Shown in pieces: positions 23,850-45,966 of a stretch of DNA of 64,000 nucleotides. The position numbers and the translations under genes were made by a program. Positions within the stretch are counted from its first letter, which is position 1; every line of letters starts with the position of its first letter. The notes beneath the pieces were generated by a model. The model had not been told where the DNA came from, did no database searches, and worked only from the letters and a program-made list of their open reading frames with translations. Source of the DNA: an uncultured Rikenellaceae bacterium (GTDB lineage Bacteria > Bacteroidota > Bacteroidia > Bacteroidales > VadinHA17); NCBI GenBank assembly GCA_964410385.1, contig CAYPHL010000002.1:16720-80719 (forward strand), written 5' to 3'.

Positions 23850-23852
23850 TTT

Positions 23853-24921: not shown

Positions 24922-25235
24922 TTTACCACCTCCTTATAATCATCCTTCACTGTCTTGTCAGATAACCTGGTCCCGAATTGATATGAACCTCTGATAAGGG
25001 CATGAGCGGCCACTGTTGAGCTGAAAAACAGGATCGGTATGGCGATCAGCGCTTTGGCACCTGCATCACTTACCCCGAAATGGAATATCACCCCGGTGAG
25101 CATACTGCAGCAGCCAAGTGTGACGCATTTGGTGGCCGATTGCAGCCTGTTATAGACATCCGGCAGACGGATCAGCCCTATGCATCCGAAAGCATTGAAC
25201 AAAACACCTGTACAAATAAATATTATTGCAGCCAT
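24918..25235 (-). CDS. Mrp/Mnh antiporter subunit G-like
   Basis: 105 aa, three hydrophobic helices, in the position and order of mrpG. 4-nt overlap with the downstream gene. Confidence 0.65.
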   Translation of the reverse strand: MAAIIFICTGVLFNAFGCIGLIRLPDVYNRLQSATKCVTLGCCSMLTGVIFHFGVSDAGAKALIAIPILFFSSTVAAHALIRGSYQFGTRLSDKTVKDDYKEVVK

Positions 25236-25236
25236 A

Positions 25237-25503
25237 TTACTCGTTTAATTTTTTCCCGCTCAGATATTTTGCCAGTGTCAGGGTTCCCGTGAAACTTAAA
25301 ATTATCCAGGCAATACCGATGTCAAGGATGAAGGATCTTTCGGTCTGGATTGAGATTATTGCACAGATGCCGACAACCAGTATGCCAAAGATATCAATCC
25401 CTACCATCCTGTCAGGAATTGTGGGTCCCCTGATGATCCTGTAAAGACAGACCGCACTCAGACCGATCTGGATATAGAGCAGTATGTTAAGTAATCCATT
25501 CAT
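25237..25503 (-). CDS. Mrp/Mnh antiporter subunit F-like
   Basis: 88 aa with three helices, including RIIRGPTIPDRMVGID, typical of MnhF. Confidence 0.7.
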   Translation of the reverse strand: MNGLLNILLYIQIGLSAVCLYRIIRGPTIPDRMVGIDIFGILVVGICAIISIQTERSFILDIGIAWIILSFTGTLTLAKYLSGKKLNE

Positions 25504-25985
25504 TCTGCAAATCTTTTAATGTATTTTTCAAAATTCCCGGTGATTTTCTTGGTATAAACCTCAGGATCATCGGAACTTACATAAATCCAGTGGATATAGA
25601 AATCATTCTCAATAATATCGACTGTGATTGTCCCCGGAGTCATTGTTATGGAATTGGCCAGTATGGTTTTTGCAAATTCCGATCTGAGAGATGTTCTCAC
25701 TTTTACTATACCGGGTTTAATCGGCATTGCGGGATGAAGAACCCTGTAAGCTACATCGAAATTAGCTTTTATGCATGCCCACAGGAAAACGATAAGATAG
25801 ATCAGAAACCAGAACCACCGGGCAGGCTGAAGATACTTATAGACATTACTGAAATAATATCTGGCGAAAATTGCGGAGGTAAGTGCGGAAGCCACCGAAC
25901 CGGTTATGATATTGGGGACAGTGATCCTGAAGGTCAGCAGTAACCAGAATATCAGTGATAATATGAATACGGCTATATATCTCAT
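25500..25985 (-). CDS. Mrp/Mnh antiporter subunit E-like
   Basis: 161 aa. N-terminal helices plus the MnhE-like segment ANSITMTPGTITVD. Confidence 0.7.
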   Translation of the reverse strand: MRYIAVFILSLIFWLLLTFRITVPNIITGSVASALTSAIFARYYFSNVYKYLQPARWFWFLIYLIVFLWACIKANFDVAYRVLHPAMPIKPGIVKVRTSLRSEFAKTILANSITMTPGTITVDIIENDFYIHWIYVSSDDPEVYTKKITGNFEKYIKRFAE

Positions 25986-27520
25986 ATGCCAGTTATTTGA
26001 GATGGATATTTTGATGGATCCATAAGTATATCCGTTGCCGGTGTAAGAATTGTTTCTCTTATGCCGGGCAATACCAGCAGACTGAGAAGCAGGCAGATAA
26101 TGCTTAATATTATCATGCTGAACACCATAGGGAAAGGTACTTCCCTGATTTTTCCTGTATTCAGGTCTTCAGATTTATTAAAGAATGCATAGCGTTGAAA
26201 TTTAAGAAATGACGCCAGCGTAATGATGCTTACTATCACGGCAAGTACTGCAAGAAGGTAATATCTTGCCATCACAGCTGCAACGATTATTATGAGCTTA
26301 CTGAAGAATCCGTTAAAGGGTGGTATACCGGAAATTGCCATTGATGCGGTAAAGGATGTGGCAGCAGTGGCCGGCATCTGCCTGGCCAGACCACCCATCT
26401 CATGAAGATCCCGAGTCCCGGCAGCATATTCTATTGCCCCGGCATTGAGGAAAAGCAGCCCTTTAAATGCTGCATGGTTTATAAGGTGAAATATTCCGCC
26501 TGCTATCGCAAGTGAGGCAATTTCATTTCTCATTCCCTTTGAAATCATCATCATCCCGATCCCGACAGAAAGGACAACATATCCCATCTGGCTGATGCTG
26601 TGGTATGCAAGCAGCCGTTTGATATCCCATTGCCCTATGGCCAGGAAGACACCGATCAGCATTGACAATGCACCAAGTGATGTGATTAGTACCGACATGG
26701 CCTGACTGATGGCGAACATGTTAAAAAACAACCTGATAATCACATATATCCCGACAGCTTTGATCAGAACCCCCGAAAGCATCGCAGAAATAGGGGAAGG
26801 CGCCGATGAATGCGCATCCGGAAGCCAGGCATGAAAAGGAATTATTGCTGCCTTAAGACCAAATCCTGCTAAAAGGATGATCTGAACAAAAAGATAGTAT
26901 GTCCTGTCATATCCTGTACTGAACACATTACGGATATCGGCAATGTTAAGGGTTTTAGCTTTCCAGTAGATGAATCCTATTCCGAAAAGTATCATAAAAG
27001 ATGCGATACCACCCAGAACCTGGTATTTAAAAGTCGCTTCAAGTTCATTCTTTTCAACCCCGAATGCAACAAGCGCATAAGATGAGATTGCCGATATCTC
27101 AAGAAAAACGAAAATGTTAAAGATATCTCCGCTTATTACTACTCCGTTCATTCCTGATATCATGAGGCAGAAAAGTGAGTAGAAATAATTTACGGAGGTA
27201 TACTTGTTCATGTAGGATATTGAATAAAAGACCGAAAGGAATCCGATAAGATTTATTATACATAAAACCAGGGTGTTGAATCCGTCGAGGACCATGTAAA
27301 TACCGACAGGGACACCGTTGACAGGCTCCCAGCCGCCTGCTTTATAAACAGTAACCTTTTCACCAGTAGAGAAGAGAAACCAGAAACTCATAAAAGCCAG
27401 GAAAAGGAGGATAACAGAGGCAAAATATTTGTCGAAATTTCTGATGAACCTGCTCAGTATCATTATCAGGAAAGCTCCGGCCAGGGGTATTATTACAAAT
27501 AAAGGGATCAGCGGATTCAT
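25982..27520 (-). CDS. MrpD/NuoM-N-like proton- or sodium-conducting antiporter subunit
   Basis: 512 aa polytopic protein of the complex I antiporter-like family (PFHAWLPDAHSSAP, LLAYHSISQMGY). Confidence 0.85.
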   Translation of the reverse strand: MNPLIPLFVIIPLAGAFLIMILSRFIRNFDKYFASVILLFLAFMSFWFLFSTGEKVTVYKAGGWEPVNGVPVGIYMVLDGFNTLVLCIINLIGFLSVFYSISYMNKYTSVNYFYSLFCLMISGMNGVVISGDIFNIFVFLEISAISSYALVAFGVEKNELEATFKYQVLGGIASFMILFGIGFIYWKAKTLNIADIRNVFSTGYDRTYYLFVQIILLAGFGLKAAIIPFHAWLPDAHSSAPSPISAMLSGVLIKAVGIYVIIRLFFNMFAISQAMSVLITSLGALSMLIGVFLAIGQWDIKRLLAYHSISQMGYVVLSVGIGMMMISKGMRNEIASLAIAGGIFHLINHAAFKGLLFLNAGAIEYAAGTRDLHEMGGLARQMPATAATSFTASMAISGIPPFNGFFSKLIIIVAAVMARYYLLAVLAVIVSIITLASFLKFQRYAFFNKSEDLNTGKIREVPFPMVFSMIILSIICLLLSLLVLPGIRETILTPATDILMDPSKYPSQITGI

Positions 27521-27523
27521 AAT

Positions 27524-27862
27524 CTATCCTTTGAGGTTTTTAATCTCTCTTATATCGAATGTTCCGTATTTTCTGAAGATCCTGATGATAACAGCCATTA
27601 TCATTGCCGTTGTCGCAAGACCGATCACAATTGCTGTCAGCACAAGCGCCTGCGGTAAGGGATCTACATAAATTTTTGCCGGATCGGCAGGATCAACAAT
27701 CGGCGCTGTTCCGCCTTCAATATATCCGATCAGCGCCAGGAAGAGGAAGGTACTGAATTCCATAACGGAAAGCGAAATGGCTATTTTCACAAGGTTTCTT
27801 CTTGTAATTACACCATAAAGGCCTGTAAGGAACAATCCAAAACACATCAGGTATGGTATCAT
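27524..27862 (-). CDS. MrpC/NuoK-like subunit
   Basis: 112 aa with three helices, in the position of mrpC. Confidence 0.7.
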   Translation of the reverse strand: MIPYLMCFGLFLTGLYGVITRRNLVKIAISLSVMEFSTFLFLALIGYIEGGTAPIVDPADPAKIYVDPLPQALVLTAIVIGLATTAMIMAVIIRIFRKYGTFDIREIKNLKG

Positions 27863-28296
27863 CCGGGCATCTCCTCCTTGAAAATTATTAGTGCAAGAAA
27901 AATAGTAAGTATGGATGCGGCAACTTCTATACCTACAAAAATATTGTACAGGGGAATGATCCCTGCGCTAATCAGTTCACCGGCTGTTCCTTTCGGTAAC
28001 CAGTTCAGGAAAAATATCTTTGTACCGAAAATTAATCCGGAACATGCCAGGAATGCCACAATGAGAATGGCAAGGTTCTCATAAAGTGTCGATCCCGATT
28101 CCTCCTTTGTCAGTTTCATGAAATCGCTTCCGAAGGCAAGAATGAGGAGGATAAATGATCCTGCAATTATTACTCCTCCTGCAAATCCACCTCCGGGTGT
28201 AAGGTGACCATGGACGATCACATAAATTCCATAAAGAAATACAAGCCCCGCAATCAGCTGCGTTGTTTTCTTTACTATTACTGTCATCCCTTTCAT
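27859..28296 (-). CDS. MrpB-like subunit
   Basis: HGHLTPGGGFAGG signature of the MnhB domain. Confidence 0.75.
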   Translation of the reverse strand: MKGMTVIVKKTTQLIAGLVFLYGIYVIVHGHLTPGGGFAGGVIIAGSFILLILAFGSDFMKLTKEESGSTLYENLAILIVAFLACSGLIFGTKIFFLNWLPKGTAGELISAGIIPLYNIFVGIEVAASILTIFLALIIFKEEMPG

Positions 28297-28319
28297 ACTC
28301 TAATAGATCAATCTTTAGT

Positions 28320-28449
28320 TACCGTCATTGCGAGGAGTCCCGCATAAGGCGGGACGACGAAGCAATCCTTCCCTATAACCCCAACTCCTCTCCCTGCTAC
28401 CGTCATTGCTTCGTCCCACCCGCGGCGAGACGACGAAGCAATCCGTTCC
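28320..28449. repeat. two tandem copies of a ~50-bp REP-like palindromic element inside the operon
   Basis: Both copies run TACCGTCATTGC...GACGACGAAGCAATCC. Copy 1 has the hairpin GTCCCGC-ataag-GCGGGAC (28337-28355). Copy 2 has the perfect 11-bp inverted repeat ATTGCTTCGTC (28405-28415) / GACGAAGCAAT (28432-28442). Confidence 0.85.
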
Positions 28450-28465
28450 GAATTACTCCAATGCC

Positions 28466-28993
28466 TCACTTCCTCCCCTTCACCCTCAAAATCGTCAATA
28501 CCCCCAGCACCGCTGTTACCAGCACCGTAGCCTCTCCCAGTGTATCATATCCCCTGAAATCAAAGACCACCCCTGTAACAAGATTGGCACTGCCTGTCTT
28601 TGCCATCGCCCCCTCAATATATGGTTCCGCCATCCTCAGGGTGCTATAACCGAACGGGCTCAGAACGTTTGCTGCAGCCCTGAAAAACCAGAACAAAACA
28701 ATTACAACGAATATTGCAGTTACAGCATTTACATAACTCTGCGTGTCGGGACCGGAATAGAGCTCTTCCCTAGAACTGTCCAGCACCACCGCAACCATTA
28801 TTATCAATGAAATTGTTTCAACTACAATCTGAACAATTGCCAGATCCGGAGCCTTTAACAGCAGGAAACATATTACAAGGCCATAACCCACTATCCCGCA
28901 TGCAATTACTGCTGAAAGAAGATCCTTTGCATGGATTGCAAATAATGCCCCCACTATCATTAGTCCTGTTATTACGGATATTGCAATTTCCAT
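28466..28993 (-). CDS. MrpA C-terminal (DUF4040/MbhD-E-like) plus MnhB N-terminal-like membrane subunit
   Basis: N-terminal helices resemble the DUF4040 region. The C-terminal NLVTGVVFDFRGYDTLGE is the typical MnhB-related motif. Confidence 0.65.
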   Translation of the reverse strand: MEIAISVITGLMIVGALFAIHAKDLLSAVIACGIVGYGLVICFLLLKAPDLAIVQIVVETISLIIMVAVVLDSSREELYSGPDTQSYVNAVTAIFVVIVLFWFFRAAANVLSPFGYSTLRMAEPYIEGAMAKTGSANLVTGVVFDFRGYDTLGEATVLVTAVLGVLTILRVKGRK

Positions 28994-29007
28994 CTGGATT
29001 ATGTAAT

Positions 29008-30906
29008 TTATATCATGATTATCAGCATTAGTATCAGTCCGGCACAGACCCAGATTATATAACCCGGCAGAACTCCCGTGTGTGCCTCGCTGAAAATGTG
29101 GCTCAGCCGTAGTACAAAACTTTTTGACAGATCATATATGTCAAACCATTTCTCTTCAGCTCTCTTATAAATACCCGAAATAAAGCCAAACTCCGACAAC
29201 GTTTTGTAGAATTCATGTGCAGGGTATGCAGTCTGATCCTGAATTCTTTCACCCCCGATAAAACTGTCTTCTCTCCTGAAATTCTTATAGTTCAGTATAA
29301 GATAGAATATCAGTCCAAATGCTAACGATATTATTACAAGAAGTGAGACAAATGAGGAATCCCAGAATCCTGTGAACTGAAATTCACCGGTTACAGGCAT
29401 GAAAAGTCCTTTCACGACAAGATTTGTTGCGAAGATCCCGAATGCAGTACAGAATAGTGCAAGGATGGCTGAAGGCAGCCACATCAGGACTGGTACTTCG
29501 CGGACATTTTCAAGTGATTCTTTCCGGCGGCTGAGGAAAATACCCCCGATGAATTTGATAAAGCTCGCAAGGGTCAGCGCAGACCCAAGAACAGCAAGTC
29601 CAAGCCATAATACCCATAGTTTTGCTGCAATTCCTTCCTGTGCTCCCGACTCTATAATCCCCTGATATATCATCCATTTTGAAGCAAATCCGTTGAATGG
29701 AGGTACCCCCGAAATAGATACTGCAAATATCATTGCCGTAATAAATGTTACGGGCATTTTCGTCGACAGACCTCCAAGCTCGTCAATATTTACCTCTCCC
29801 GTCCTGTATTCTACATTCCCGGCTGTAAGGAAAAGACCGCTTTTATAAAGTGCATTATTTATCATATGGAACAAGCCGGCGGCAACTCCGATCATCGAAC
29901 CAAGACCAAAACCAAGGATCATATAACCTACCTGCGATACTGCATGAAAGCCCAGCAGACGCTTGTAATTGTGTTGTACAAGCGCCATCATAACAGCAGC
30001 AATTATTGAGATTGATCCGGTGATCAGCAGGACGAGTCTCATAGCATCATTCATTATGAAAATATCCGTCGTAATTCTGGCAAGAAAATAGATCCCCAGA
30101 AGTTTATCAAGAGAAGCCGGCAGGATTGCTGAAGAGGATGCCGGTGCATCTTTTGCATAATCAGGTACCCATGAATGGAAGGGGAAGGCGCCCGCTTTTG
30201 TGAAACATCCGGTAAGCAGAGCTAAAAAGGCTGTCACAGCAAGGATGTTGTCTGTGGGAAGAGATACGGAATCGATGCTGAAAGATCCTGTCAGCCTGTA
30301 AACCATGGCAATACCAATGATCATTATTGAATCCGAGCCTCCGATAAGTATAAGGGTTTTCTTTGCAGTGGCCGAACTATCTTCATCCCTGCCCGGGATA
30401 AGCTTATACAGGGTAATGCCAAGAATACCCCAGAAGATAAGGAACATTATAAGATTGTCTGCCAGAACTGCACCATATGAACATCCGAGGGTTATAAGGA
30501 ACCATTGATAATAATTCCTGGTCCTTCCGTTCTTTATATATAATATTGAATATGTAAGTATGAGTATCGAAAAGAGACTTATAAACAGTACTATAAGTTT
30601 GCTGAGATTATCGACCGAGAATGTAAAGAAGCTTTCTGCACCCTCTGTCAGATCCGAACCCAGAAGCACATTGCAGGTCCTGTCCATGATCCCTTCAAGA
30701 GTAACTATCTGGGCCGCTGATGTGAATAAAGGAATTGTAAGGTAACCGGTAATAAGACTGATCAGCAGGGCAAAGTAACCTTTAACTTTCAGATACTTTT
30801 CCGGGACCATAAAAAGGAGAATACCTGCGAGAACAGGAATTAAGATGAGAAGTTGCAGGAACTTACAGACTGAAGGATTTGATATTATTGAGAATAATCC
30901 GCTCAT
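29008..30906 (-). CDS. MrpA/NuoL-like antiporter subunit
   Basis: 632 aa polytopic protein of the complex I antiporter-like family (FPFHSWVPDYAKDAP, LLGFHAVSQVGY). Confidence 0.85.
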   Translation of the reverse strand: MSGLFSIISNPSVCKFLQLLILIPVLAGILLFMVPEKYLKVKGYFALLISLITGYLTIPLFTSAAQIVTLEGIMDRTCNVLLGSDLTEGAESFFTFSVDNLSKLIVLFISLFSILILTYSILYIKNGRTRNYYQWFLITLGCSYGAVLADNLIMFLIFWGILGITLYKLIPGRDEDSSATAKKTLILIGGSDSIMIIGIAMVYRLTGSFSIDSVSLPTDNILAVTAFLALLTGCFTKAGAFPFHSWVPDYAKDAPASSSAILPASLDKLLGIYFLARITTDIFIMNDAMRLVLLITGSISIIAAVMMALVQHNYKRLLGFHAVSQVGYMILGFGLGSMIGVAAGLFHMINNALYKSGLFLTAGNVEYRTGEVNIDELGGLSTKMPVTFITAMIFAVSISGVPPFNGFASKWMIYQGIIESGAQEGIAAKLWVLWLGLAVLGSALTLASFIKFIGGIFLSRRKESLENVREVPVLMWLPSAILALFCTAFGIFATNLVVKGLFMPVTGEFQFTGFWDSSFVSLLVIISLAFGLIFYLILNYKNFRREDSFIGGERIQDQTAYPAHEFYKTLSEFGFISGIYKRAEEKWFDIYDLSKSFVLRLSHIFSEAHTGVLPGYIIWVCAGLILMLIIMI

Positions 30907-30911
30907 TTTTT

Positions 30912-32108
30912 TCAGGTGATTTTTTTCTTCAGTTCAATGGTTCGTTTTACTGATGATTCTATAAGCTCTTTCGCGTTCATCAATCTCCTTCCGGAATTAA
31001 TGTCGAGGGCCACGGCCATTCGTTCCGTGCAGCAGTAACAAGGATCGACCGCTGCCAGTGAGATAGTTGCATCTGAAATAGTCTGACCGATACAAGATTT
31101 CTTAAAGGTTGCAATATTGACGTAGCTTGGCGCTCTAATCTTATGCCTGACAGGTGAATTGGACCCGTCAGAAACCACAAAATGAAAGACTTCACCTCTG
31201 GGAGCCTCTGCCCGGCCTGTCCCGGAACCTTCAGGTATCTCATTCACCTTAACTGCAATATCTCCCTCCGGTGTTTTTTCAAGTCCGCCAAGACATTGTT
31301 CAATAATTGAGATTGATTCATACATCTCCAGCAGTCTGACCTCTGCTTTTGCAAAAACATCACCTTCTTCCGCGGTGATCACCTTCCAGCTGACTAGCGG
31401 ATATGCTGCATAAGGATCGTCTCTTCTGATATCTATAGAAACACCGGAAGCCCGGGCAGTCGGACCTACAGCCGCAAAGTCAGTTATGTCCTGTTTTGTA
31501 AGTACCCCTACACCTTTTGTCCTGGCATGTATAACGGGATCATCCATCACTGCACCTGTCAGAAGATCAGTTTTTTTCTTTACATCTGAGAGGGTTTTTC
31601 TTATTGTGGAAATTTTATTGTTTTCAATATCCCGGCGCACACCTCCGACCTTGAATATTGCATAGCTGTTCCTGTTGCCGGTTATCATCTCAAACAGATC
31701 GAGAATGGGTTCACGGTATTTCCATGCCCACATGAAAACAGTGTTATATCCCAGGAAATGACCTGCAAGGCCAACCCACAGGAGATGACTATGGATCCTT
31801 TCAAGTTCACCGATAATGGACCTTATATATCTGGTCCTGTCAGTTATATCAATACCGGCAATCTCCTCAACAGCATTGGCAAAAGCAAAGGGATGAGAGG
31901 TGGAACAAATCCCGCAAATCCGCTCGACAAGGAAAAAGACCTGATCATAGGTTTTTGATTCACTTAGCTTTTCTATCCCCCTGTGATTATATCCCGTTTC
32001 CCACTTAATATCTTTTACGATCTCACCGTCGCAGAATAGCTTGAACAGCTCAGGTTCTTCCTGCAGAGGATGATAGGGACCAATCGGTATGAGTGTTTTT
32101 GTACCCAT
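30912..32108 (-). CDS. group-4 (energy-converting, NuoD-like) [NiFe]-hydrogenase large subunit
   Basis: N-terminal Ni-binding RICGICSTSH and C-terminal DPCYCCTER are both intact. A tail of about 35 residues follows the C-terminal motif (substrate for the endopeptidase). 398 aa, NuoD-sized. Confidence 0.9.
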   Translation of the reverse strand: MGTKTLIPIGPYHPLQEEPELFKLFCDGEIVKDIKWETGYNHRGIEKLSESKTYDQVFFLVERICGICSTSHPFAFANAVEEIAGIDITDRTRYIRSIIGELERIHSHLLWVGLAGHFLGYNTVFMWAWKYREPILDLFEMITGNRNSYAIFKVGGVRRDIENNKISTIRKTLSDVKKKTDLLTGAVMDDPVIHARTKGVGVLTKQDITDFAAVGPTARASGVSIDIRRDDPYAAYPLVSWKVITAEEGDVFAKAEVRLLEMYESISIIEQCLGGLEKTPEGDIAVKVNEIPEGSGTGRAEAPRGEVFHFVVSDGSNSPVRHKIRAPSYVNIATFKKSCIGQTISDATISLAAVDPCYCCTERMAVALDINSGRRLMNAKELIESSVKRTIELKKKIT

Positions 32109-32119
32109 TTTGCCAGTTC

Positions 32120-32575
32120 TTATTTAAACTCTTTCCTGTAAGGATAAACACCTTCTGCCCAGTTACCTTCAGATATAAGCTTTTCCTGGTTGGGATGATT
32201 CAGAAAGTTAATTCCAAATAATTCATGAATCTCCCTCTCGATCCAGTTTGATGCATTGAATAAATTTGAAAGAGACTCTATCTGAGGATTTTCACTGTTA
32301 ATTATCACAAGAATGTTAAGAACAAGTCCTGTTGAATCAAGACTGAAGTGATAATTGATCTCAAATCCTCTTTTTGTATGAAGGGCTGAAGCTATTATGA
32401 ACCTTAATCCTGCAGTCTTGTACAGATACTCAGCAATTCCGACAATGGATTCCGGTTTCACTGTTACCGTTGCCCGCCTCTCACTCTTCTTAGTCACTTC
32501 AAGTACCTCAGTTTCGAAGCTCTTCTTTAATTTTTCTATTACCAGATCCGTTCCCATTGTATATCGTTCCAACAA
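32120..32575 (-). CDS. NuoC/HycE-N/MbhK-like subunit
   Basis: 151 aa with ERE(I/V)xE(L/M)FGI-type motif (WIEREIHELFGINF). Confidence 0.8.
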   Translation of the reverse strand: MLERYTMGTDLVIEKLKKSFETEVLEVTKKSERRATVTVKPESIVGIAEYLYKTAGLRFIIASALHTKRGFEINYHFSLDSTGLVLNILVIINSENPQIESLSNLFNASNWIEREIHELFGINFLNHPNQEKLISEGNWAEGVYPYRKEFK

Positions 32576-32586
32576 AATATTTTAAA

Positions 32587-32766
32587 CTCACCGCTCACCT
32601 CTCAATACTCATCCCTCACTACTCACAACTCATCTCTCACCCCTCTCAACTCATCCCTCACCACTCATCTCCGGGTTGGCAGTTGGCAGTTGGCAATCTG
32701 ACTAACTACTTACCGCTTTTCGCCCCGCACCCCGCACCTCGCACCTTGCACCCTGCTTCCCGCACT
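32587..32766. repeat. tripartite 7-bp tandem arrays inside the hydrogenase operon (CTCANNN x12; GTTGGCA x3; NNGCACC x6)
   Basis: Blocks at 32587-32670, 32675-32695 and 32725-32766. They fill the 189-bp gap between the NuoB-like stop (32765-32767) and the NuoC-like start (32575). Confidence 0.9.
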
Positions 32767-33175
32767 ACCTTCCCGCCAGTTTCACTATCCCGGCGATGAT
32801 CGCCTCCGGCTTGGGCGGACACCCGGGTATATAAGCATCAACGGGGATGATTTTGTCAACCGGTCCCGCAAACGTAATGCCTTCGGCAAATATCCCACCC
32901 GTACAGCCGCATGCTCCTATTGCTACCACCAGTATTGGTTTGGGAGCCTGATGATATATCTCGATCAGTCTGTCTTTATCACGCTTATTGATTGATCCGT
33001 TAACAAGAAGTACATCAGCATGTCTAATGCTTCCTACAAGGAGGATCCCGAAACGTTCAAGATCATACCTTGGAGTAAGGCAATCAAGTATCTCAATATC
33101 GCAATTATTGCAGGAGGCCCCTCCGAAATGAAAGACCCATAGTGATTTTTTAAAGCAATAACTCTTAAATCCCAC
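32765..33175 (-). CDS. NuoB-like [NiFe]-hydrogenase small subunit
   Basis: Cys ligands GGASCNNC, IGACGCTGG and PGCPPKPE of the proximal [4Fe-4S] cluster. 136 aa. Confidence 0.9.
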   Translation of the reverse strand: MGFKSYCFKKSLWVFHFGGASCNNCDIEILDCLTPRYDLERFGILLVGSIRHADVLLVNGSINKRDKDRLIEIYHQAPKPILVVAIGACGCTGGIFAEGITFAGPVDKIIPVDAYIPGCPPKPEAIIAGIVKLAGR

Positions 33176-33186
33176 TTTCTGTAATT

Positions 33187-34119
33187 TTAGTAACCAAACG
33201 AAATCAAAACCAGTGCAATAACAGCGATCAGATTCATCCAGATCACGAAGAAGCTGATGGCCTGCTTTATCTTTAGTCTTGGATTTGTATTTCTTATCAA
33301 TGTCAATATCAGAACTATAAGAAGTATTTTGAGTACCGACCAGAGTATGTTTATCCCCCCGGGCCTGAACCCGTTCATTAGTACAGCAACAAGAAGTGCC
33401 GGAAGGATGAAAATCATAATGTATTTTGTAAGTTTTATGAGTGCATATGCAGGTCCGGAATACTCGATGAAAATACCTTCAGTGATCTCTGCTTCTGCTT
33501 CAGGTATATCAAAGGGGACCAATGCCAGTTTTGCCTGAACACAGAATATCCCGGCAATGAAAAGAATTACCCCTGAGATGCTGGCAATAAAAGGTGATCC
33601 TTCCTGTTGAGTGTGGATTATTGTGTACAGATCGAAATTCTGTCCGGATTTCATTATAATTCCTGCAATGAAGAGCAGGAAGGTAAGCTCGTAACTCATG
33701 ATGAGCTTCATTTCCCTCGATCCCCCGATAGCAGCAAGCGGATTTCCCGAGGCCAGAGAACCTGTTATGTACGAAAACGACGGGATTGTAAGCAGGTAGA
33801 AGATGACCAGGAGATCTCCTTTGAATCCCGTGGTGATGTTAAACAAAGGTAACAATATGAAGATACCTGCCAGTACAGCTCCGATAACCCCGAAAACAGG
33901 AGCCAGCAGAAACAGAACAGGTGATCCGTGTTTCGGCAGAATAGTCTCCTTTACAAGCAAAAGTTTGAAAAAATCATAAAAAGGTTGCAGCAGTGGAGGT
34001 CCCTTGCGGAACTGGACCCTGGCAGTGATCTTCCTGTCGAACCATGATAGAAATGCTCCTGTAACCGCGGTGAAAAGCAGCCCCGGGAAAATAAAGAAAT
34101 AAAAGAAATTGACTGCCAT
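33187..34119 (-). CDS. NuoH/HycD/MbhM-like membrane subunit
   Basis: 310 aa polytopic protein. DRKITARVQFRKGP and EAEAEITEG motifs of the NuoH family. Confidence 0.85.
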   Translation of the reverse strand: MAVNFFYFFIFPGLLFTAVTGAFLSWFDRKITARVQFRKGPPLLQPFYDFFKLLLVKETILPKHGSPVLFLLAPVFGVIGAVLAGIFILLPLFNITTGFKGDLLVIFYLLTIPSFSYITGSLASGNPLAAIGGSREMKLIMSYELTFLLFIAGIIMKSGQNFDLYTIIHTQQEGSPFIASISGVILFIAGIFCVQAKLALVPFDIPEAEAEITEGIFIEYSGPAYALIKLTKYIMIFILPALLVAVLMNGFRPGGINILWSVLKILLIVLILTLIRNTNPRLKIKQAISFFVIWMNLIAVIALVLISFGY

Positions 34120-34120
34120 A

Positions 34121-34618
34121 TTATTTTATTTCAGTTTTATAGAGATACTCTCTTATAAGAACTTTTTCGTTGAGCCGGTAAATATTCTTTTCAGGCGATT
34201 CACCGTCATCAGTCATATACGCTGTCCCGGCAGGACAGGCGTCAATGAATTTATTCGCCTCATCCTCATCACCAAGGTTGTAAAACAGTTCCCGGTTACG
34301 GTGATGAACAAAGAAATCTGTCATCATGGTACCGAAAGGACATATTGTAACACACGACTTACATGAAACGCAAAGGTTGGTATGGCGTGCAACAACTCCA
34401 TCACTATCCTTTTCAAGTGCTTCAGTCGGACAGACAGCAATACAGGGAGCATCTTCACATTTTCTGCAGGTGAACATGAAGGTTGCCAGCTCCCTTATTG
34501 TTTTCAGGCCGTTTGAATTTGGAGATTGATAGAATAATCCTTCCGGGAGTGTAAGGTCAGAATTAACTGACATTGCCTCCCGGAGCCTGATCATATCTAT
34601 TACCAGATTCTTTGGCAT
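34121..34618 (-). CDS. 2x[4Fe-4S] ferredoxin-domain protein
   Basis: CRKCEDAPCIAVCP and CVSCKSCVTICP. Confidence 0.75.
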   Translation of the reverse strand: MPKNLVIDMIRLREAMSVNSDLTLPEGLFYQSPNSNGLKTIRELATFMFTCRKCEDAPCIAVCPTEALEKDSDGVVARHTNLCVSCKSCVTICPFGTMMTDFFVHHRNRELFYNLGDEDEANKFIDACPAGTAYMTDDGESPEKNIYRLNEKVLIREYLYKTEIK

Positions 34619-36442: not shown

Positions 36443-36444
36443 TT

Positions 36445-36462
36445 ATGTGACAAAGTTCACAT
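36445..36462. promoter_or_regulatory. candidate Rex operator (ATGTGACAAAGTTCACAT)
   Basis: Perfect TGTGA-N6-TCACA core, with 11 of 14 specified positions matching the Rex-box consensus TTGTGAAnnnnTTCACAA. It ends 2 nt from the start codon of the first operon gene, and rex is encoded divergently 169 nt away. Confidence 0.65.
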
Positions 36463-36630
36463 TTATAAAATTATATTCTGTATATTAATTAACAAATGAA
36501 AAATGGCTGATTTTCTTATATAAAAATATCAATAAGAGATAACAAATTAATAATCAATTAAATAAAATACTTTTTTATTTTAGGAAATTATTGATTAAAT
36601 TTCGGAAAAATAGTTTAAGCAGGAAATAAT

Positions 36631-37314
36631 GTGAAACAAATCACAAAATATGTAATAAAAAACAGCCTTAAAAGGATCTTTCTCTACAGGGCATGCCTTG
36701 TAAGACTGAAACTTATGGGAGTTGAGCGGGTATATTCCTATACTCTGGCACATGAAACAGGGGTTACTTCTGATCAGGTCAGGAAAGACTTTTCAGAATT
36801 TAAAATTACCGGAAACAAGAGGGGAGGCTATAAAATAAATGAGTTACTGGAAAAGATGGAAAGCATTTTTCACAGGAATCAGGATCATAATATAGTTCTC
36901 ATCGGGATGGGTAATATGGGTCTTGCTTTATCGAAGTACAGCCGGTTTGTTCAGAGGAACATGAATATTGTGGCAACTTTCGATATCGATCCTTTCAAGC
37001 AGAAGCAGCGATCTGATCTTCCGGTTTATTCAATGAGCAGACTGAAAGAGATCATCGACAGGTTTAAAGTCAGGGTTGCCATAATTGCAGTTCCTGAGAT
37101 ATCTGCCCAGGAGGTTGCAGATGAGCTGGTTCGCCATGGTATTAAGGGAATTGTGAATTTCGCCCCGGTCCTTTTGAAAATGCCCCCCGACGTTGTAATT
37201 AATAATGTGAACCTCTGCGATGAACTTGAAAGTGTGATCTATTATGTTCACAAACAGATTAAAGCGGACGGAACTAAAAATCTGGAGCTATTATACAAGG
37301 GTATGAAATACTGA
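36631..37314 (+). CDS. rex: redox-sensing transcriptional repressor Rex
   Basis: GTG start. N-terminal winged-helix part (LKRIFLYRACL...YSYTLAHETGVTSDQVRKDFS) and a Rossmann domain (NIVLIGMGNMGLAL). Confidence 0.85.
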   Translation: MKQITKYVIKNSLKRIFLYRACLVRLKLMGVERVYSYTLAHETGVTSDQVRKDFSEFKITGNKRGGYKINELLEKMESIFHRNQDHNIVLIGMGNMGLALSKYSRFVQRNMNIVATFDIDPFKQKQRSDLPVYSMSRLKEIIDRFKVRVAIIAVPEISAQEVADELVRHGIKGIVNFAPVLLKMPPDVVINNVNLCDELESVIYYVHKQIKADGTKNLELLYKGMKY

Positions 37315-37325
37315 TCAAGGGTCTG

Positions 37326-39554
37326 GTGCAGGGTGTCGGATTCCGGCCATTTATCTACCGGATGGCAGTAAAGCACGGATTATCAGGGGAAGTTGACAAC
37401 CGGAGCGATGGAGTTTATCTTATAGTTCAGGGCGATTCCTCTGCAATAGACAGGTTTACAAACGATGTGCTCCATAACGCGCCACCTGCATCCCGTATAA
37501 AATCAATAGAAATGAGCCCTGTAAGGACAGCCGGCTATGTAGGATTTACAATAGCGGAAAGTAAAGACTTTAACAGGAATGTAACTGAGATAAGCCCTGA
37601 TATTGCGGTCTGCAGGGAATGCCTTGACGATATGGAAACCGATCCCGCCAGGATTGCTTATCCTTTCGTAAACTGCACACATTGTGGTCCCAGGTTTACA
37701 ATTATTGAAGAATTGCCCTATGACCGTCAGAAAACGACGATGAGAAGCTTTGAAATGTGTGGTAAATGCAGATCAGAATACGGGAATATGCTGGACAGAC
37801 GCTTCCATGCACAGCCTGTTGCGTGCAACTCGTGCGGACCAGCATACAGATACGAAAACAATTCAGGTGGCTGTACAGATATAAATGAAATTATTGAAAC
37901 TATTGCACTTCAGATAGATTCAGGAAAAATAGTTGCCCTTAAAGGGCTTGGAGGCTACCACCTTCTGTGCGATTCATTTAATAATAATGCTGTCCTGACT
38001 CTCAGGAAAAGGAAGCAAAGAGACTCCAAACCATTTGCAGTAATGTTCAGAGATGTTGAGACAGCTTCGGAATATTGCTTTATAGAAAAAGAGGACAAAA
38101 ATGAACTCCAGTCGTGGAGAAGACCAGTTGTAATTCTAAGACAAAAAAATGAAATGGCTCCGGCAGTAAATAATGATCTGTCCACAACAGGGGCATTAAT
38201 GCCATACATGCCATTCCATTATTTGCTGTTCAAAAAGTTAAATACCCGCGCAATTGTTTTTACCAGTGCTAATATGTCAGATGAACCGGTAATAATCGAT
38301 GACGTGATTGCCGGTAATGAACTGACCCATGTGGCAGATTCTCTGGTAAGCTACAACCGTGAAATACTTAACAGGGCTGATGACTCTGTCGTAAGGTTCA
38401 TAGATAACAGATTGACTGTGATCCGGCGTTCAAGGGGCTTTGTTCCGGGGCCCGTTGATATCAGGTTTGAAGCAGAAGGTATTCTTGCCCTGGGTGCAGA
38501 ACAAAAAAACAGTTTCTGTATCGGAAAGGGCAGACAGGCTATCCTGGGCCAGTATATCGGCGATCTTAAAAATAAGTCAACTTTAGATTTTTTCACCGGA
38601 TCGATAGAAAGATTTGGAAAATTGTTCCGTTTTAAGCCTTCATTCTTAGCCTGTGATCTTCACCCGGATTATCTTTCTTCACAATACGCAGAAAATCTTG
38701 AAGCCAGGCTCGGGATCCCTCTTCTGAAGGTGCAGCATCATCACGCACATGTTGCATCCTGTATGGCTGAGAATTGTATCGACGAAGAAGTTATCGGAGT
38801 GTGCTTTGACGGTACAGGTCTTGGAACAGACGGAACAATCTGGGGCGGAGAATTTATGATAGCAGACCTGTGTGACTTCAGAAGATATAGTCATTTTGAT
38901 GAAATACAACTTCCCGGAGGTGATAAAGTGGCAAATGAGCCATGGAGGTCTGCGTTTTCATATCTGTGGAAATATTTTGGTGATGATTTTGACTATTATA
39001 GCATCCCTGCCTTCAGGACCATCTCACAGGAAAAATTCTTAGCATTAAGGGAGATGCTTGATAAGAAAATAAATACACCGCTTTCTTCCGGTGCGGGCCG
39101 TCTGTTCGACGCAGTATCGGCTATGACAGGATTGTGTACATTTTCATCATTCGATTCGGAAGCTCCCATCAGACTTGAATCGGCAATATGTGATTTCACG
39201 GATGACATTTATCCCTTTCAGGCCGGAAAAACAGTAGTGTTCAGGGATACACTGAAAGAAATTCTGAAAGATATCCCGGAAAGATCTGTATCACTCATTT
39301 CCGCCAAATTCCATAATACAATTGCCAGGCTTATTCTTGACGTTGCCGTTCAGATACGAAGTGAAACATCTGTTAATAAAATAGTCCTTACCGGAGGGGT
39401 TTTTCAGAACAAATATCTTCTGGAAAAATCCTTATATCTTTTAAGGAAGTGTGAATTTGAAACTTTTACCAATAATTATGTACCACCAAATGACGGGGGA
39501 ATTTCACTTGGCCAGCTGGTGATTGCATCAAAAAAGCGTGAAATATGTGCCTGA
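37326..39554 (+). CDS. hypF: [NiFe]-hydrogenase maturation carbamoyltransferase HypF (start uncertain, see findings)
   Basis: Acylphosphatase signature VQGVGFRPF, two Zn-finger pairs (CRECLDD...CTHCGPR; CGKCRSEY...CNSCGP), then YrdC-like and Kae1-like domains. Confidence 0.9.
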   Translation: MQGVGFRPFIYRMAVKHGLSGEVDNRSDGVYLIVQGDSSAIDRFTNDVLHNAPPASRIKSIEMSPVRTAGYVGFTIAESKDFNRNVTEISPDIAVCRECLDDMETDPARIAYPFVNCTHCGPRFTIIEELPYDRQKTTMRSFEMCGKCRSEYGNMLDRRFHAQPVACNSCGPAYRYENNSGGCTDINEIIETIALQIDSGKIVALKGLGGYHLLCDSFNNNAVLTLRKRKQRDSKPFAVMFRDVETASEYCFIEKEDKNELQSWRRPVVILRQKNEMAPAVNNDLSTTGALMPYMPFHYLLFKKLNTRAIVFTSANMSDEPVIIDDVIAGNELTHVADSLVSYNREILNRADDSVVRFIDNRLTVIRRSRGFVPGPVDIRFEAEGILALGAEQKNSFCIGKGRQAILGQYIGDLKNKSTLDFFTGSIERFGKLFRFKPSFLACDLHPDYLSSQYAENLEARLGIPLLKVQHHHAHVASCMAENCIDEEVIGVCFDGTGLGTDGTIWGGEFMIADLCDFRRYSHFDEIQLPGGDKVANEPWRSAFSYLWKYFGDDFDYYSIPAFRTISQEKFLALREMLDKKINTPLSSGAGRLFDAVSAMTGLCTFSSFDSEAPIRLESAICDFTDDIYPFQAGKTVVFRDTLKEILKDIPERSVSLISAKFHNTIARLILDVAVQIRSETSVNKIVLTGGVFQNKYLLEKSLYLLRKCEFETFTNNYVPPNDGGISLGQLVIASKKREICA

Positions 39555-39775
39555 GTATCCCTGCCAGAATAATTTCGATTGACGGAAGCATGGCAGAGGT
39601 ATCTGCCGGCGGGACGGTTTTTAAGGCCGGACTCCAGATGGTCGAAGATGTGATTGTCGGAGACTACATTCTGCTTCATGCCGGATTCGCAATTCAGAAG
39701 ATCAGCGAAGAAGAGGCTTCTGAAACAATGAAGCTGCTGAAAGAGATGGAAGACGCCATGAACGATACAGAATGA
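39545..39775 (+). CDS. hypC: hydrogenase assembly chaperone HypC/HupF
   Basis: MCLSIPARI N-terminus with the essential Cys2. 76 aa. Confidence 0.9.
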   Translation: MCLSIPARIISIDGSMAEVSAGGTVFKAGLQMVEDVIVGDYILLHAGFAIQKISEEEASETMKLLKEMEDAMNDTE

Positions 39776-40857
39776 AATATATCGACGAATACAGGGACAG
39801 GGATCTGATAATGAAGCTTGCCGCTCAGATAAGAAGATCGGTAAAAGGGACATATACTTTCATGGAGGTTTGCGGGGGTCATACAGCTGCCATTCAAAGG
39901 TTTGGCATTACGTCACTTCTCCCTGAAGAGGTGAAGCTTATTTCCGGTCCCGGCTGTCCGGTATGCGTGACTGAAAAAGATTTCATCGACAAGGCAATAG
40001 AGTATTCTTTGAAAAAGGATGTTATTCTGACTACTTTCGGCGATCTGATGAGGGTTCCGGGTTCGCTCACTTCACTTGAGAAAATGAAATCTTCAGGTGC
40101 TGATATCAGGATAGTTTTTTCAGGGCTGGATGCTCTTAAAACAGCCCGGATTAATCCTGATAAGAAGGTCATTTTCCTCGGTATAGGCTTTGAAACAACA
40201 GCTCCGGGCACAGCTGTTACTATAAAAAGTGCTGTGATGGAAAAAGTCAGCAATTTCTTTGTTCTCAGCTCACATAAGATAATGCCTCCTGCTATGGAAG
40301 CAATTCTTAAAGACGGAACTGCCGTTGACGGATTTATCTGCCCCGGTCATGTTGCAGTTGTTACAGGTTCATCAGCCTTTGATTTCATTCCGGAAAAATT
40401 TTCCAGGGGATGTGTTGTTACCGGATTTGAACCGACAGATATACTACTGGGTATATATATGCTTATACAACAGGTAAATAATAATGATCCGTCTGTGGAG
40501 ATCCAGTATAAAAGGGCTGTTACAAGAAATGGGAATCCTATGGCAAAAAGCGTAATGCAGGCTGTTTTTGAAAAATGTGATGCTTCCTGGAGAGGATTTG
40601 GTTCAATACCCTTAAGCGGTCTTGTCCCTGGAAAAGATTACCGGAGATTTGATGCTGAATATCAAATGCCTGTGACGGTAAATTCACTTCCTGATGATGA
40701 ATTATGTATGTGCGGCGATATTCTGAGAGGGTGGAAAACACCTGAAGAATGTCCTCTTTTCAGCAGAACATGTAATCCATTGAATCCGGTTGGTGCATGC
40801 ATGGTTTCGAATGAAGGATCATGCAATACATGGTATAAATACAAACTGGCAAAATGA
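39772..40857 (+). CDS. hypD: hydrogenase formation protein HypD
   Basis: MEVCGGHT, GPGCPVCV and FETTAP motifs. Confidence 0.95.
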   Translation: MKYIDEYRDRDLIMKLAAQIRRSVKGTYTFMEVCGGHTAAIQRFGITSLLPEEVKLISGPGCPVCVTEKDFIDKAIEYSLKKDVILTTFGDLMRVPGSLTSLEKMKSSGADIRIVFSGLDALKTARINPDKKVIFLGIGFETTAPGTAVTIKSAVMEKVSNFFVLSSHKIMPPAMEAILKDGTAVDGFICPGHVAVVTGSSAFDFIPEKFSRGCVVTGFEPTDILLGIYMLIQQVNNNDPSVEIQYKRAVTRNGNPMAKSVMQAVFEKCDASWRGFGSIPLSGLVPGKDYRRFDAEYQMPVTVNSLPDDELCMCGDILRGWKTPEECPLFSRTCNPLNPVGACMVSNEGSCNTWYKYKLAK

Positions 40858-41861
40858 AAGATATAATAACCCTCGGTCATGGCAGCGGAGGGAAACAGAT
40901 GCATGATCTTATAAAAGAAATTTTTACAGGAAGCTTTGGTATGCCTGAGCCTCTTACTGATTCGGCAATACTCGATTTCACCGGGAATAAACTTGCATTT
41001 ACAACTGACTCCTATGTGGTTGATCCTTTGTTTTTCCCGGGCGGGAATATTGGTAAGCTTGCAGTATGTGGTACTGTCAATGATCTGGCGGTATCGGGCG
41101 CCAGACCATTATATCTTTCAGCATCTTTTATAATTGAGGAAGGATTTCCTTTCGCTAAACTATCAGAAATTGCCGCTTCAATGGCAGAGGAGGCTCATAA
41201 TGCTGGAATAAAGATCGTTACCGGAGATACGAAGGTTGTTGAAAAAGGCAAGTGCGACGGGTTGTTCATAACCACTTCCGGCGCAGGAGCTATACTTCCC
41301 CGAAGAGAACATATTAGTTCAGGCAACAGGATCCGCCCGGGAGATAGGCTGATTATTAACGGACCTCTGGGAAATCACTCAATAGCCGTCCTTGGGGCAA
41401 GAAAAGAACTCAGTTTTACAACAAACGTGGTTTCGGATTGTGCAGTTTTGAATCACCTTCTCGAATCGGTCTGTAACGCCTGTGATGAGATACATTTTAT
41501 GCGCGATGTTACAAGGGGCGGACTGGCTGCTGTATTGAACGAGATTGCCGGAATTACGGGAATGGGCATGTCAGTAGATGAACCATCAGTGCCGGTTGAC
41601 GACCCGGTGAGAGGAGCATGCGAAATGCTTGGCTTTGATCCTCTTTACCTGGCAAATGAAGGTAAGGTGCTGATAATAGCCGGTGCAGGATCAGAAGACA
41701 AAATTCTCGGGATAATGCGCTCTGATCCGGCCGGAACACGCTCGGAAATAATCGGAGAAGTATTAAGCATTGAAAAAAACCATGTTATTCTGAATACTGT
41801 CACAGGAGGAAAGAGAATAATCGATATGCCAACCGGTTTACAGCTTCCAAGGATATGTTAA
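40854..41861 (+). CDS. hypE: hydrogenase expression/formation protein HypE
   Basis: PurM-like fold with the C-terminal PRIC motif. Confidence 0.95.
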   Translation: MKDIITLGHGSGGKQMHDLIKEIFTGSFGMPEPLTDSAILDFTGNKLAFTTDSYVVDPLFFPGGNIGKLAVCGTVNDLAVSGARPLYLSASFIIEEGFPFAKLSEIAASMAEEAHNAGIKIVTGDTKVVEKGKCDGLFITTSGAGAILPRREHISSGNRIRPGDRLIINGPLGNHSIAVLGARKELSFTTNVVSDCAVLNHLLESVCNACDEIHFMRDVTRGGLAAVLNEIAGITGMGMSVDEPSVPVDDPVRGACEMLGFDPLYLANEGKVLIIAGAGSEDKILGIMRSDPAGTRSEIIGEVLSIEKNHVILNTVTGGKRIIDMPTGLQLPRIC

Positions 41862-43969: not shown

Positions 43970-44019
43970 GATGGTAGTATGGTCGTGCGGTCATGCGGTC
44001 GTGCAGTCGTGCGGTCTGG
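43969..44019. repeat. 8-bp tandem array (NNTGNGGT / GGTCGTGC units, about 6)
   Basis: aggatggt agtatggt cgtgcggt catgcggt cgtgcagt cgtgcggt. Starts at the last base of the TAG stop (43967-43969). Confidence 0.85.
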
Positions 44020-44057
44020 TTAAAAATTGTTAAAAAAATAATTGTTAATAATTTCTG

Positions 44058-44224: not shown

Positions 44225-44242
44225 TTGTTATTAATTTCACAG
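44225..44242. promoter_or_regulatory. weaker Rex-box-like site (TTGTTATTAATTTCACAG) upstream of the [FeFe]-hydrogenase operon
   Basis: 11 of 14 consensus positions, but one mismatch falls in the left core (TTGTTA vs TTGTGA). Lies 63-80 nt upstream of the ATG at 44305. Confidence 0.35.
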
Positions 44243-44772: not shown

Positions 44773-44784
44773 CACTGAGGTATT

Positions 44785-45945: not shown

Positions 45946-45966
45946 TTACTAAATCATAGCGAAATA

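Follow-up and report, generated by a model that had tools for sequence, protein, structure and literature searches.

Two predicted Rex operators bracket the intergenic region between rex-hypFCDE and an Mbh/Mrp-type [NiFe]-hydrogenase operon in uncultured Bacteroidales

Introduction

Control of hydrogenase operons by the redox-sensing repressor Rex, together with autoregulation of rex, is known from Firmicutes. Electrophoretic mobility shift assays with C. bescii Rex demonstrated binding upstream of a 19-gene operon for the membrane-bound [NiFe]-hydrogenase Ech, upstream of an [FeFe]-hydrogenase operon and upstream of rex (PMC6391272). The generalised operator TTGTGAANNNNTTCACAA and repression at low NADH/NAD+ are established (PMC5317091, PMC6391272); the form of the operator given by Ravcheev et al. 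(2012), as cited in these two papers, is TTGTGAAnnnnTTCACAA. The Rex operator of S. aureus is TTGTGAAW4TTCACAA (PMC2883068), and a variant of the Rex box, TTGTTAANNNNTTAACAA, has been published for Clostridiaceae. For Caldithrix abyssi a rex-hydrogenase cluster (Cabys_3675-3679) was predicted in which the candidate Rex box shows two deviations from the consensus (PMC5317091). Here we describe two palindromes, referred to as box 1 and box 2, in a 64-kb stretch of contig CAYPHL010000002.1 from an uncultured Rikenellaceae bacterium of the order Bacteroidales; the whole 64-kb stretch is called the window below. The boxes lie at the two ends of the intergenic region that separates rex from a divergently oriented operon for a predicted Mbh/Mrp-type [NiFe]-hydrogenase, and comparison with related loci makes it very probable that they are functional Rex operators at which both divergent transcription units are repressed and the repression is relieved by NADH. 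Neither a Rex regulon nor a link between Rex and a hydrogenase was found in the literature for the Bacteroidetes/Bacteroidota, coverage of that literature being incomplete.

The locus resembles those of C. bescii and C. saccharolyticus (Firmicutes) in having a Rex, predicted here to sense NADH, an inverted repeat of the TTGTGAAnnnnTTCACAA type at the promoter of a multi-gene operon for a membrane-bound group 4 [NiFe]-hydrogenase and, as a prediction here, rex autoregulation (PMC6391272). The differences from C. bescii concern the organization of the locus as well as the enzyme and the phylum, which here is Bacteroidota. At the present locus rex is divergent from the hydrogenase operon and heads hypFCDE, two operators bracket an intergenic region of fixed length with one of them holding the rex start codon, and the hydrogenase is of the Mbh/Mrp type with a ShyBC-like module instead of an Ech. 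Binding was shown by experiment for C. bescii and is predicted here. With the cluster of Caldithrix abyssi, the locus shares the physical linkage of rex to hydrogenase genes and a candidate Rex box beside rex, the role of which is a prediction in that organism as well. However, rex of Caldithrix abyssi is co-directional with and heads a bifurcating [FeFe]-hydrogenase operon and has one site, whereas here the number of sites is two and the divergent operon is one for an Mbh-type [NiFe]-hydrogenase.

Two exact palindromes at the ends of one intergenic region

Box 1 (ATGTGACAAAGTTCACAT, Table 1) has a perfect dyad as its core, consisting of TGTGA (36446-36450), a 6-nt spacer and TCACA (36457-36461). 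On the minus strand box 1 reads AAATGTGAACTTTGTCACATAA. TAA comes next, and after it the start codon ATG (36442-36440) of a 333-aa ORF, the first gene of the hydrogenase operon, which leaves 3 nt between the end of the core and the start codon. The initiating Met of this ORF is invariant in an alignment of 25 homologues. Compared to the consensus TTGTGAAnnnnTTCACAA, box 1 matches at 11 of the 14 specified positions, with mismatches at positions 1, 7, and 18 and a complete core (10/10). Box 2 (ATGTGAAACAAATCACAA) matches at 12 of the 14 positions, also with a complete core (10/10), and overlaps codons 1-6 of rex in such a way that the GTG start codon falls within the TGTGA half-site. Exact TGTGA-N6-TCACA sequences occur twice in the window, compared to 0.07 expected from dinucleotide shuffles, and both are located in a single 188-nt intergenic region (36443-36630), one at each end. 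The rex start at 36631 is 169 nt away from 36462.

A first-pass annotation of this DNA had reported a perfect palindrome directly in front of the operon ATG, matching the consensus at 11 of 14 positions, with rex starting 169 nt away on the other strand and heading the hypFCDE genes. The palindrome is found exactly there, the recount gave the same number, and the distance and the gene order are as reported. The annotation spoke of one Rex box. Box 1 is indeed real, but the equally conserved box 2 over the rex start had been missed.

Conservation of the boxes in related Bacteroidales

A profile of the first operon gene identified 80 loci (L003-L082), one per species-level genome, in metagenome-assembled genomes (MAGs) named as Bacteroidales, Bacteroidia or Rikenellaceae. 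The closest homologue is on the Bacteroidota MAG contig JAKQPD010000406, with 94% identity for the first gene; this contig and Ga0116148_1000305 are nearly identical to the window. In 74 of the loci rex is divergent from the operon, and these loci and the window together form the footprint set of 75 sequences, in which the sequences between the boxes are all distinct and have a mean pairwise identity of 53%. Despite this divergence the length of the intergenic region is 186-193 nt in about 70 species.

The core of box 1 is exact in 72 of the 74 rex-linked orthologous promoters and one base off in the other two. The start of box 1 is 18-24 nt upstream of the ATG, almost always at -19 or -20 in the rex-linked loci, and in 69 of the 75 sequences the end of its TCACA is 3-4 nt away from the start codon. 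The core of box 2 is exact in all 75. The mean frequency of the majority base is 0.997 for the core of box 1 and 1.000 for the core of box 2, compared to 0.65 for the other 166 intergenic columns. The arms are identical and invariant at both boxes and show no compensatory variation. In 672 kb of sequence from the related loci 149 exact sites were detected, and not one of them lies outside the 260 nt that precede the operon. A chance palindrome was ruled out by this confinement to the same intergenic region together with the two sites against 0.07 expected in the window. The consensus of the lineage is (A/T)TGTGA(A/T)-N4-(T/C)TCACA(T/A). It has the dyad symmetry, the 18-bp span, the invariant TGTGA/TCACA core and the A/T-rich centre of the generalised operator TTGTGAAnnnnTTCACAA and differs from it in having A as the outermost base on the operon-distal side and, in most cases, C at position 12 of box 1. 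Fourteen further columns of the intergenic region are at least 95% conserved, among them promoter-like blocks.

Since box 2 lies within coding sequence, its conservation was also examined at the codon level. Codons 1-6 of rex are GTG AAA CAA ATC ACA AAA, and among the sequences that share the amino acid the synonymous choice is frozen (ATC in 53/53, ACA in 69/69, CAA in 57/57). Most of codons 7-60 are free at synonymous sites, where the commonest codon of a four-fold degenerate family typically has a frequency of 0.3-0.6. The constraint on box 2 thus acts on nucleotides and not on the peptide, and the explanation that box 2 is kept merely as coding sequence for the Rex N-terminus was ruled out by this synonymous-site test. 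The use of GTG as start codon is accounted for by its being part of the TGTGA half-site. Box 2 is an unusually clear case, found in about 70 species, of an operator embedded in the coding start of its own putative regulator.

Box 1 decays where rex is lost

TGTGA-N6-TCACA is also the classical CRP core. As the core is common to CRP-type sites, the motif alone cannot name the regulator, and for this reason it matters whether the boxes disappear together with rex. Five loci without adjacent rex had enough upstream sequence to be analyzed (L007, L010, L029, L035, and L059). Excision of rex has left hypF directly facing the operon in L007, L010, L029, and L059; in L035 NuoE/NuoF-like genes are found upstream of the operon instead of rex. 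In four of the five loci the arms of box 1 carry 3-5 mismatches, with no loss of the spacer AATCTTCT or of the spacing to the ATG; such decay was seen in none of the 74 loci with rex. An exact box 1 is present in 72/74 loci with rex and in 1/5 loci without it (Fisher p = 4.9e-5). The first-pass proposal of a Rex operator at the head of the operon is thereby strengthened: the box is conserved upstream of the orthologous operons, as that annotation had predicted for a genuine site, its decay follows the loss of rex, and the neighbouring gene is predicted to encode a true Rex (see below).

Two further features were noticed in these promoters. About 200 nt upstream of the operon ATG, beside hypF, L007 and L010 both contain what is a remnant of box 2, TGTGATTT(T/C)TTTCATA, with one mismatch. 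L007, in which box 1 is lost, and L010, in which it is exact, look like successive stages of operator decay. A TTGTTAAnnnnTTCACAA-like site with one mismatch to the core occurs in L029, L035, and L059, three rex-less loci with a decayed box 1, at about -85 to -87 relative to the ATG of the operon, and also at -90 in L015 and L025, which do contain rex. This site may serve as an alternative operator, bound either by another regulator or by a Rex whose gene lies elsewhere.

The protein encoded next to box 2 is a predicted Rex

By all family assignments the 227-aa protein encoded at 36631 is a genuine Rex. It contains the Pfam domains Put_DNA-bind_N (PF06971; 43.6 bits, threshold 27), for the N-terminal winged helix that binds DNA, and CoA_binding (PF02629; 75.8 bits, threshold 22.3), for the C-terminal Rossmann domain that binds NAD(H), scores 219.5 bits against the NCBIfam equivalog NF003996 (cutoff 138) and matches Rex chains in the PDB with E = 8e-36 to 1e-30. 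The protein was aligned without gaps to T. maritima Rex (5ZZ5/7WB3) with an offset of +3. Residue roles in T. maritima Rex were taken from the ternary complex (PMC8836258), in which Arg48 and Lys49 read the guanines of the operator, the DNA contacts comprise R12, S33, Q46, R48, K49, S52, G58, and Y64, and the NAD(H) signature consists of GxGxxG, Asp115 (adenine ribose), the switch residue Tyr100 and the alpha9 Asp D191. All these DNA-contact residues are present in the Rex of the window, as R15, S36, Q49, R51, K52, S55, G61, and Y67. The wing residues R60 and G61 of T. maritima align to K63 and R64, in a register that is ambiguous by one residue. Of the NAD(H) signature, GxGxxG is kept as G92-M-G-N-M-G97, together with D118 and the switch residue Y103.

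Promoter elements and proposed mechanism

Primary promoters of Bacteroidetes have TAnnTTTG at -7 and TTTG near -33 (PMC7366714). We infer promoter elements and transcription starts at the present locus from matches to this consensus. The candidate -7 element of the operon, TAATTTTA, is located 4 nt upstream of box 1. TAnnTTTA is found in all 75 sequences of the footprint set and lies 2-4 nt upstream of the TGTGA of box 1 in 73 of them. A possible -33 element, TTTG, is present 19 nt upstream of the -7 element in the window, and TTG or TTTG occurs 19-21 nt upstream of the -7-like element in 53/75 sequences, which is weak evidence for this second element. The TTTG inside the spacer of box 1, which had been taken for a -7-like element in the first reading of the sequence, does not qualify as such, because it is confined to the window and a small number of its closest relatives: the window has ACTTTG where most species have ATCTTC, and the conserved TAnnTTTA is upstream of the box. 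For rex, the candidate -7 element is TAAATTTC, 26 nt upstream of box 2. It reads TAACTTGC in most relatives, with a conserved GCAAgtTA block in the alignment, and TAnnTT[TG][GC] ends 26-28 nt before box 2 in 63/75 sequences.

As the conserved TAnnTTTA abuts box 1, transcription of the hydrogenase operon should start within or at the edge of box 1, which is a classical position for a repressor site. The distance of 26-28 nt between the rex candidate and box 2 suggests that box 2 would be a downstream roadblock as well as an autoregulatory site. In the mechanism we propose, box 1 probably covers the transcription start of the operon and a leader of roughly 20 nt. At low NADH/NAD+ a Rex dimer, either bound to NAD+ or free, would occupy each box. 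At box 1 it would block initiation or promoter escape of the hydrogenase operon, and at box 2 it would form a roadblock on rex-hypFCDE, resulting in negative autoregulation. Rising NADH would bind to the Rossmann domain, upon which the recognition helices would close up and Rex would leave the DNA. The resulting derepression would lead to production of the maturation proteins and of the Mbh/Mrp-type [NiFe]-hydrogenase, and with its ShyB/ShyC-like NAD(P)H module this hydrogenase would be able to discharge surplus reductant in the form of H2. The comparison establishes the sites with their conservation, their association with rex and the identities of the genes; that Rex binds, in which direction it regulates and that the enzyme takes electrons from NAD(P)H are predictions.

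Evaluation of the Rex operators and of alternative explanations

A number of observations weigh against box 1 and box 2 being Rex operators, in addition to the similarity of their core to CRP-type sites. The flanks deviate from the canonical 18-mer (11/14 and 12/14 matches), with A and not T at position 1. The spacer of box 1, which is AATCTTCT in most species, is about 88% conserved; this goes beyond the needs of a Rex site alone, and another constraint overlaps the spacer. L010 retains an exact box 1 without adjacent rex, although a rex elsewhere in that genome is possible. In the Rex protein itself, the wing (residues 57-67) is atypical, KITGNKRGGY compared to GEFGKRGVGY in T. maritima and lacking the usual FG, and the alpha9 Asp, which makes a hydrogen bond to the switch Tyr in T. 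maritima, is replaced by Asn194. The alpha9 position is variable in the Rex family, as T. ethanolicus Rex has a His there. The atypical wing and Asn194 could indicate altered minor-groove contacts or a response to NADH that is different in detail. Finally, the case for Rex operators is one of comparative genomics throughout.

If the boxes were operators of another dimeric regulator that binds TGTGA-N6-TCACA, for instance a member of the CRP/FNR family, the adjacency of rex would be coincidental. Such a regulator would fit the identical 10-nt core, the only partial agreement of the flanks with the Rex 18-mer and the exact box 1 in L010. It fits poorly with the presence of a box on the rex start codon in 75/75 sequences, with the decay of the box 1 arms specifically where rex is lost and with the retention in Rex of the Arg-Lys pair by which both guanines of a half-site are read. 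No CRP-like gene was found among the 30 neighbouring ORFs that were scanned, the scan of the window not being exhaustive, and we regard this explanation as unlikely. A role of the palindromes in RNA, where hairpins at the 5' end of the mRNA or at the start codon would modulate translation or stability, is suggested by their location at translation starts and by predicted 5-6 bp hairpins of -6.7 and -4.0 kcal/mol. These hairpins are weak, however, and not clearly better than those of shuffled sequences (z = -1.6 and -2.0; of 200 shuffles, 17 and 10 gave folds of equal or greater stability), no Rfam match with E <= 1 was found in 36250-36850, and a transcript beginning immediately downstream of the conserved -7 element would lack part of the left arm of box 1. 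The same arm sequence is present at two unrelated genes without compensatory changes in 75 sequences, and arms that are invariant and do not covary point to recognition of the sequence and not of a structure, which makes a function in RNA extremely improbable.

A further explanation accepts Rex as the regulator and proposes that it acts mainly through the paired sites, either by looping of the 183-bp region by two dimers or by activation of one of the two promoters. The near-constant length of the intergenic region in spite of its sequence divergence, and a centre-to-centre spacing of the boxes of 181-187 nt, would be in line with this. On the other hand, the spacing varies over 7 bp, with outliers of 171 and 172, so that the sites are not phase-locked; the length would likewise stay constant with back-to-back promoters whose internal geometry is fixed; and PMC6391272 and PMC8836258 describe one dimer per operator and neither looping nor activation. 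We therefore assign a very low probability to paired action and retain repression by a Rex dimer at each box as the preferred explanation.

Gene content of the two transcription units

The features of the locus are listed in Table 1. The genes rex, hypF, hypC, hypD, and hypE are co-directional and either overlap or are separated by gaps of 11 nt, and hypF adjoins rex in all 71 loci in which hypF was detected.

Table 1. Predicted features of the rex-hydrogenase locus and position of a possible third Rex-like site (positions in the window).
Feature	Position	Strand	Remarks
Box 1, Rex-type operator ATGTGACAAAGTTCACAT	36445..36462	.	Predicted; core TGTGA-N6-TCACA at 36446-36461
Box 2, Rex-type operator ATGTGAAACAAATCACAA	36629..36646	.	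Predicted; core at 36630-36645; 12/14 to consensus
rex, redox-sensing repressor Rex (227 aa, GTG start)	36631..37314	+	Pfam, NCBIfam and PDB matches
hypF, hypC, hypD, hypE, [NiFe]-hydrogenase maturation	37326..41861	+	HypF domains; HupF_HypC, HypD, AIRS/AIRS_C (Pfam)
ShyB/AsrA-like Fer4_22 iron-sulfur protein, first operon gene	35441-36442	-	Pfam, family-level
ShyC/HydG/AsrB-like FAD/NAD(P)-binding protein, second operon gene	34620-35444	-	Pfam, family-level
Remaining operon genes	23430..34618	-	Pfam
Candidate operon -7 element TAATTTTA	36466..36473	-	4 nt upstream of box 1; compared to Bacteroidetes TAnnTTTG
Candidate operon -33 element TTTG	36493..36496	-	19 nt upstream of -7 element; weak evidence
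Candidate rex -7 element TAAATTTC	36596..36603	+	26 nt upstream of box 2
Possible weaker third Rex-like site TTGTTATTAATTTCACAG	44225..44242	.	Tentative; TGTTA/TCACA hybrid, one mismatch

Downstream of its first two genes the operon continues with genes for a 2x[4Fe-4S] protein and for NuoH-, NuoB-, NuoC-, and NuoD-like proteins, the last of which is the [NiFe] large subunit (30912-32108). These are followed by MbhH/MrpA-like, MbhD/E, MnhB, NuoK-like, MrpD-like, MnhE, and MnhG genes, and the operon ends with a ferredoxin, a HycI protease and a 139-aa ORF. Both Ni-Fe ligand motifs are present in the large subunit, the N-terminal RxCGxC as RICGICSTSH (residue 65) and the C-terminal DPCxxC as DPCYCCTER (residue 357). 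Among solved structures, MbhL of P. furiosus is its best match (6CFW_L, 1.3e-83). All features expected for a group 4 Mbh/Mrp hydrogenase (the ligand motifs, a NuoB-like small subunit, antiporter subunits like those of Mrp, an endopeptidase of its own and hyp genes) were found, with matches to Oxidored_q6, MbhD/E, MnhB, MNHE, MnhG, two Proton_antipo_M proteins, HycI, and HypFCDE. Judged by its gene content, the operon is one for a true [NiFe]-hydrogenase of the Mbh/Mrp type, with a putative NAD(P)H module at its head. The designation of the operon as an Mrp-hydrogenase operon in the first-pass annotation was thus correct for the Mbh/Mrp-type [NiFe] genes and left out that the operon opens with the ShyB-like and ShyC-like genes of this module.

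The first two genes have architectures related to those of sulfhydrogenase subunits (Fer4_22 in the first; FAD_binding_6, NAD_binding_1, and DHODB_Fe-S_bind in the second) and fall outside the ShyB/ShyC, HydB/HydG, and AsrA/AsrB equivalogs. Scores were 140 bits for ShyB (cutoff 690) and 118 for AsrA (cutoff 323), and 197 bits for PRK08345 (cutoff 395) and 192 for AsrB (cutoff 289), and because they are below the equivalog cutoffs the ShyB/ShyC-like assignment is at the family level only. The order ShyB-ShyC-ferredoxin-NuoH is kept in 76/76 loci. Together the two genes encode a putative NAD(P)H-oxidising flavo-iron-sulfur module, and its position at the head of the operon suggests a hydrogenase that is linked to NAD(P)H and translocates ions. 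The catalytic and membrane subunits are like those of P. furiosus MBH (PDB 6CFW), and the products of the first two genes are similar to the beta and gamma subunits of NAD(P)H-linked sulfhydrogenases (ShyBC/HydBG). Pyrococcus has the two modules in separate enzymes, MBH, which depends on ferredoxin, and SHI/SHII, which is soluble and depends on NADPH, whereas both modules are in one operon here, and the ShyB/ShyC-like scores are far below the archaeal equivalog cutoffs. For Bacteroidales, nothing relevant was found in the literature on an Mbh that carries an NAD(P)H module.

The hydrogenase operon also contains two long intergenic gaps of 189 and 169 nt, with repeats at 32585-32667 and 28337-28449. 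One gap has three copies of a repeat with a 21-nt period that is G-rich on the operon strand and the other has two copies of a 37-nt GC-rich element. The repeats look like small inserted elements.

A possible second class of Rex-like sites

The site TTGTTATTAATTTCACAG is located 64 nt upstream of a second hydrogenase operon in the window, which consists of NuoE-like, NuoF-like, and [FeFe]-hydrogenase genes (44305-47748). For comparison, 65 distinct sequences upstream of this [FeFe]-hydrogenase operon were used, from the window and its metagenomic relatives (L083-L162). At the position of TTGTTATTAATTTCACAG, 28 of them have TGTTA-N6-TAACA, 13 have TGTTA-N6-TCACA and 24 have another sequence. 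Sites with one mismatch are not enriched in the window (4 found compared to 2.1 expected). Given this lack of enrichment, and a conservation that is partial and mostly in the form of a different palindrome, TTGTTATTAATTTCACAG was not established as a firm member of the regulon. It does resemble the Clostridiaceae variant TTGTTAANNNNTTAACAA: the palindrome of the [FeFe]-hydrogenase operon in relatives is TTGTTA-N6-TAACA, and the window has the TGTTA/TCACA hybrid. In one of these two forms the site is present in 41/65 upstream sequences, and it does not have the motif of box 1 and box 2. A second rex gene in the window, as a possible partner of the TGTTA-type site, was not detected by tblastn.

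Taken together, the TGTTA-type sites and the TTGTTAAnnnnTTCACAA-like sites are a hint of a second class of Rex-like sites. The regulon may have two tiers, with TGTGA boxes at rex and the Mbh operon and TGTTA boxes at the [FeFe]-hydrogenase operon and, in genomes that have lost the linked rex, at about -87. If so, each tier would have its own NADH/NAD+ ratio of response or its own Rex paralogue. That the locus holds an uncharacterised type of Mbh/Mrp [NiFe]-hydrogenase wired to NAD(P)H and in addition a two-tier Rex regulon is, as a combined proposal, speculative and carries a rather low probability; if true, the enzyme would couple the pool of NAD(P)H directly both to H2 and to the potential across the membrane.

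Between the gene for an LVIVD-repeat protein and the [FeFe]-hydrogenase operon there are two GC-rich tandem-repeat arrays with an 8-nt period, at 43965-44016 and 44051-44168 (GGTCGTGC-like and CCATTGCG/CCCCTGTA-like, respectively), which flank an AT-rich duplication of AAAAATTGTTAA(A/T)AA.

Discussion

The arrangement described here would represent the same mechanism as the known Rex-hydrogenase control with autoregulation in Firmicutes, in a different phylum. Local peculiarities are the two predicted operators at the ends of a divergent region of fixed length, the start codon of the regulator within one of them, the placement of the maturation genes under a presumably autoregulated rex promoter and, as the target, an Mbh/Mrp hydrogenase with an NAD(P)H module. 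As the mechanism is textbook Rex biology, the conceptual gain is modest. Transcriptional control is, on the other hand, almost unknown in the uncultured anaerobic Bacteroidales that are abundant in sediments, digesters and sludge, and the locus yields a lineage-specific Rex motif, backed by 75 species, that can be used to reconstruct the rest of the regulon. The predicted operators also give regulatory support to the notion that an unusual ShyBC-plus-Mbh complex handles electrons derived from NAD(P)H. In these fermenters H2 metabolism is probably governed by the ratio of NADH to NAD+, in the same way as in Firmicutes and Thermotogae.

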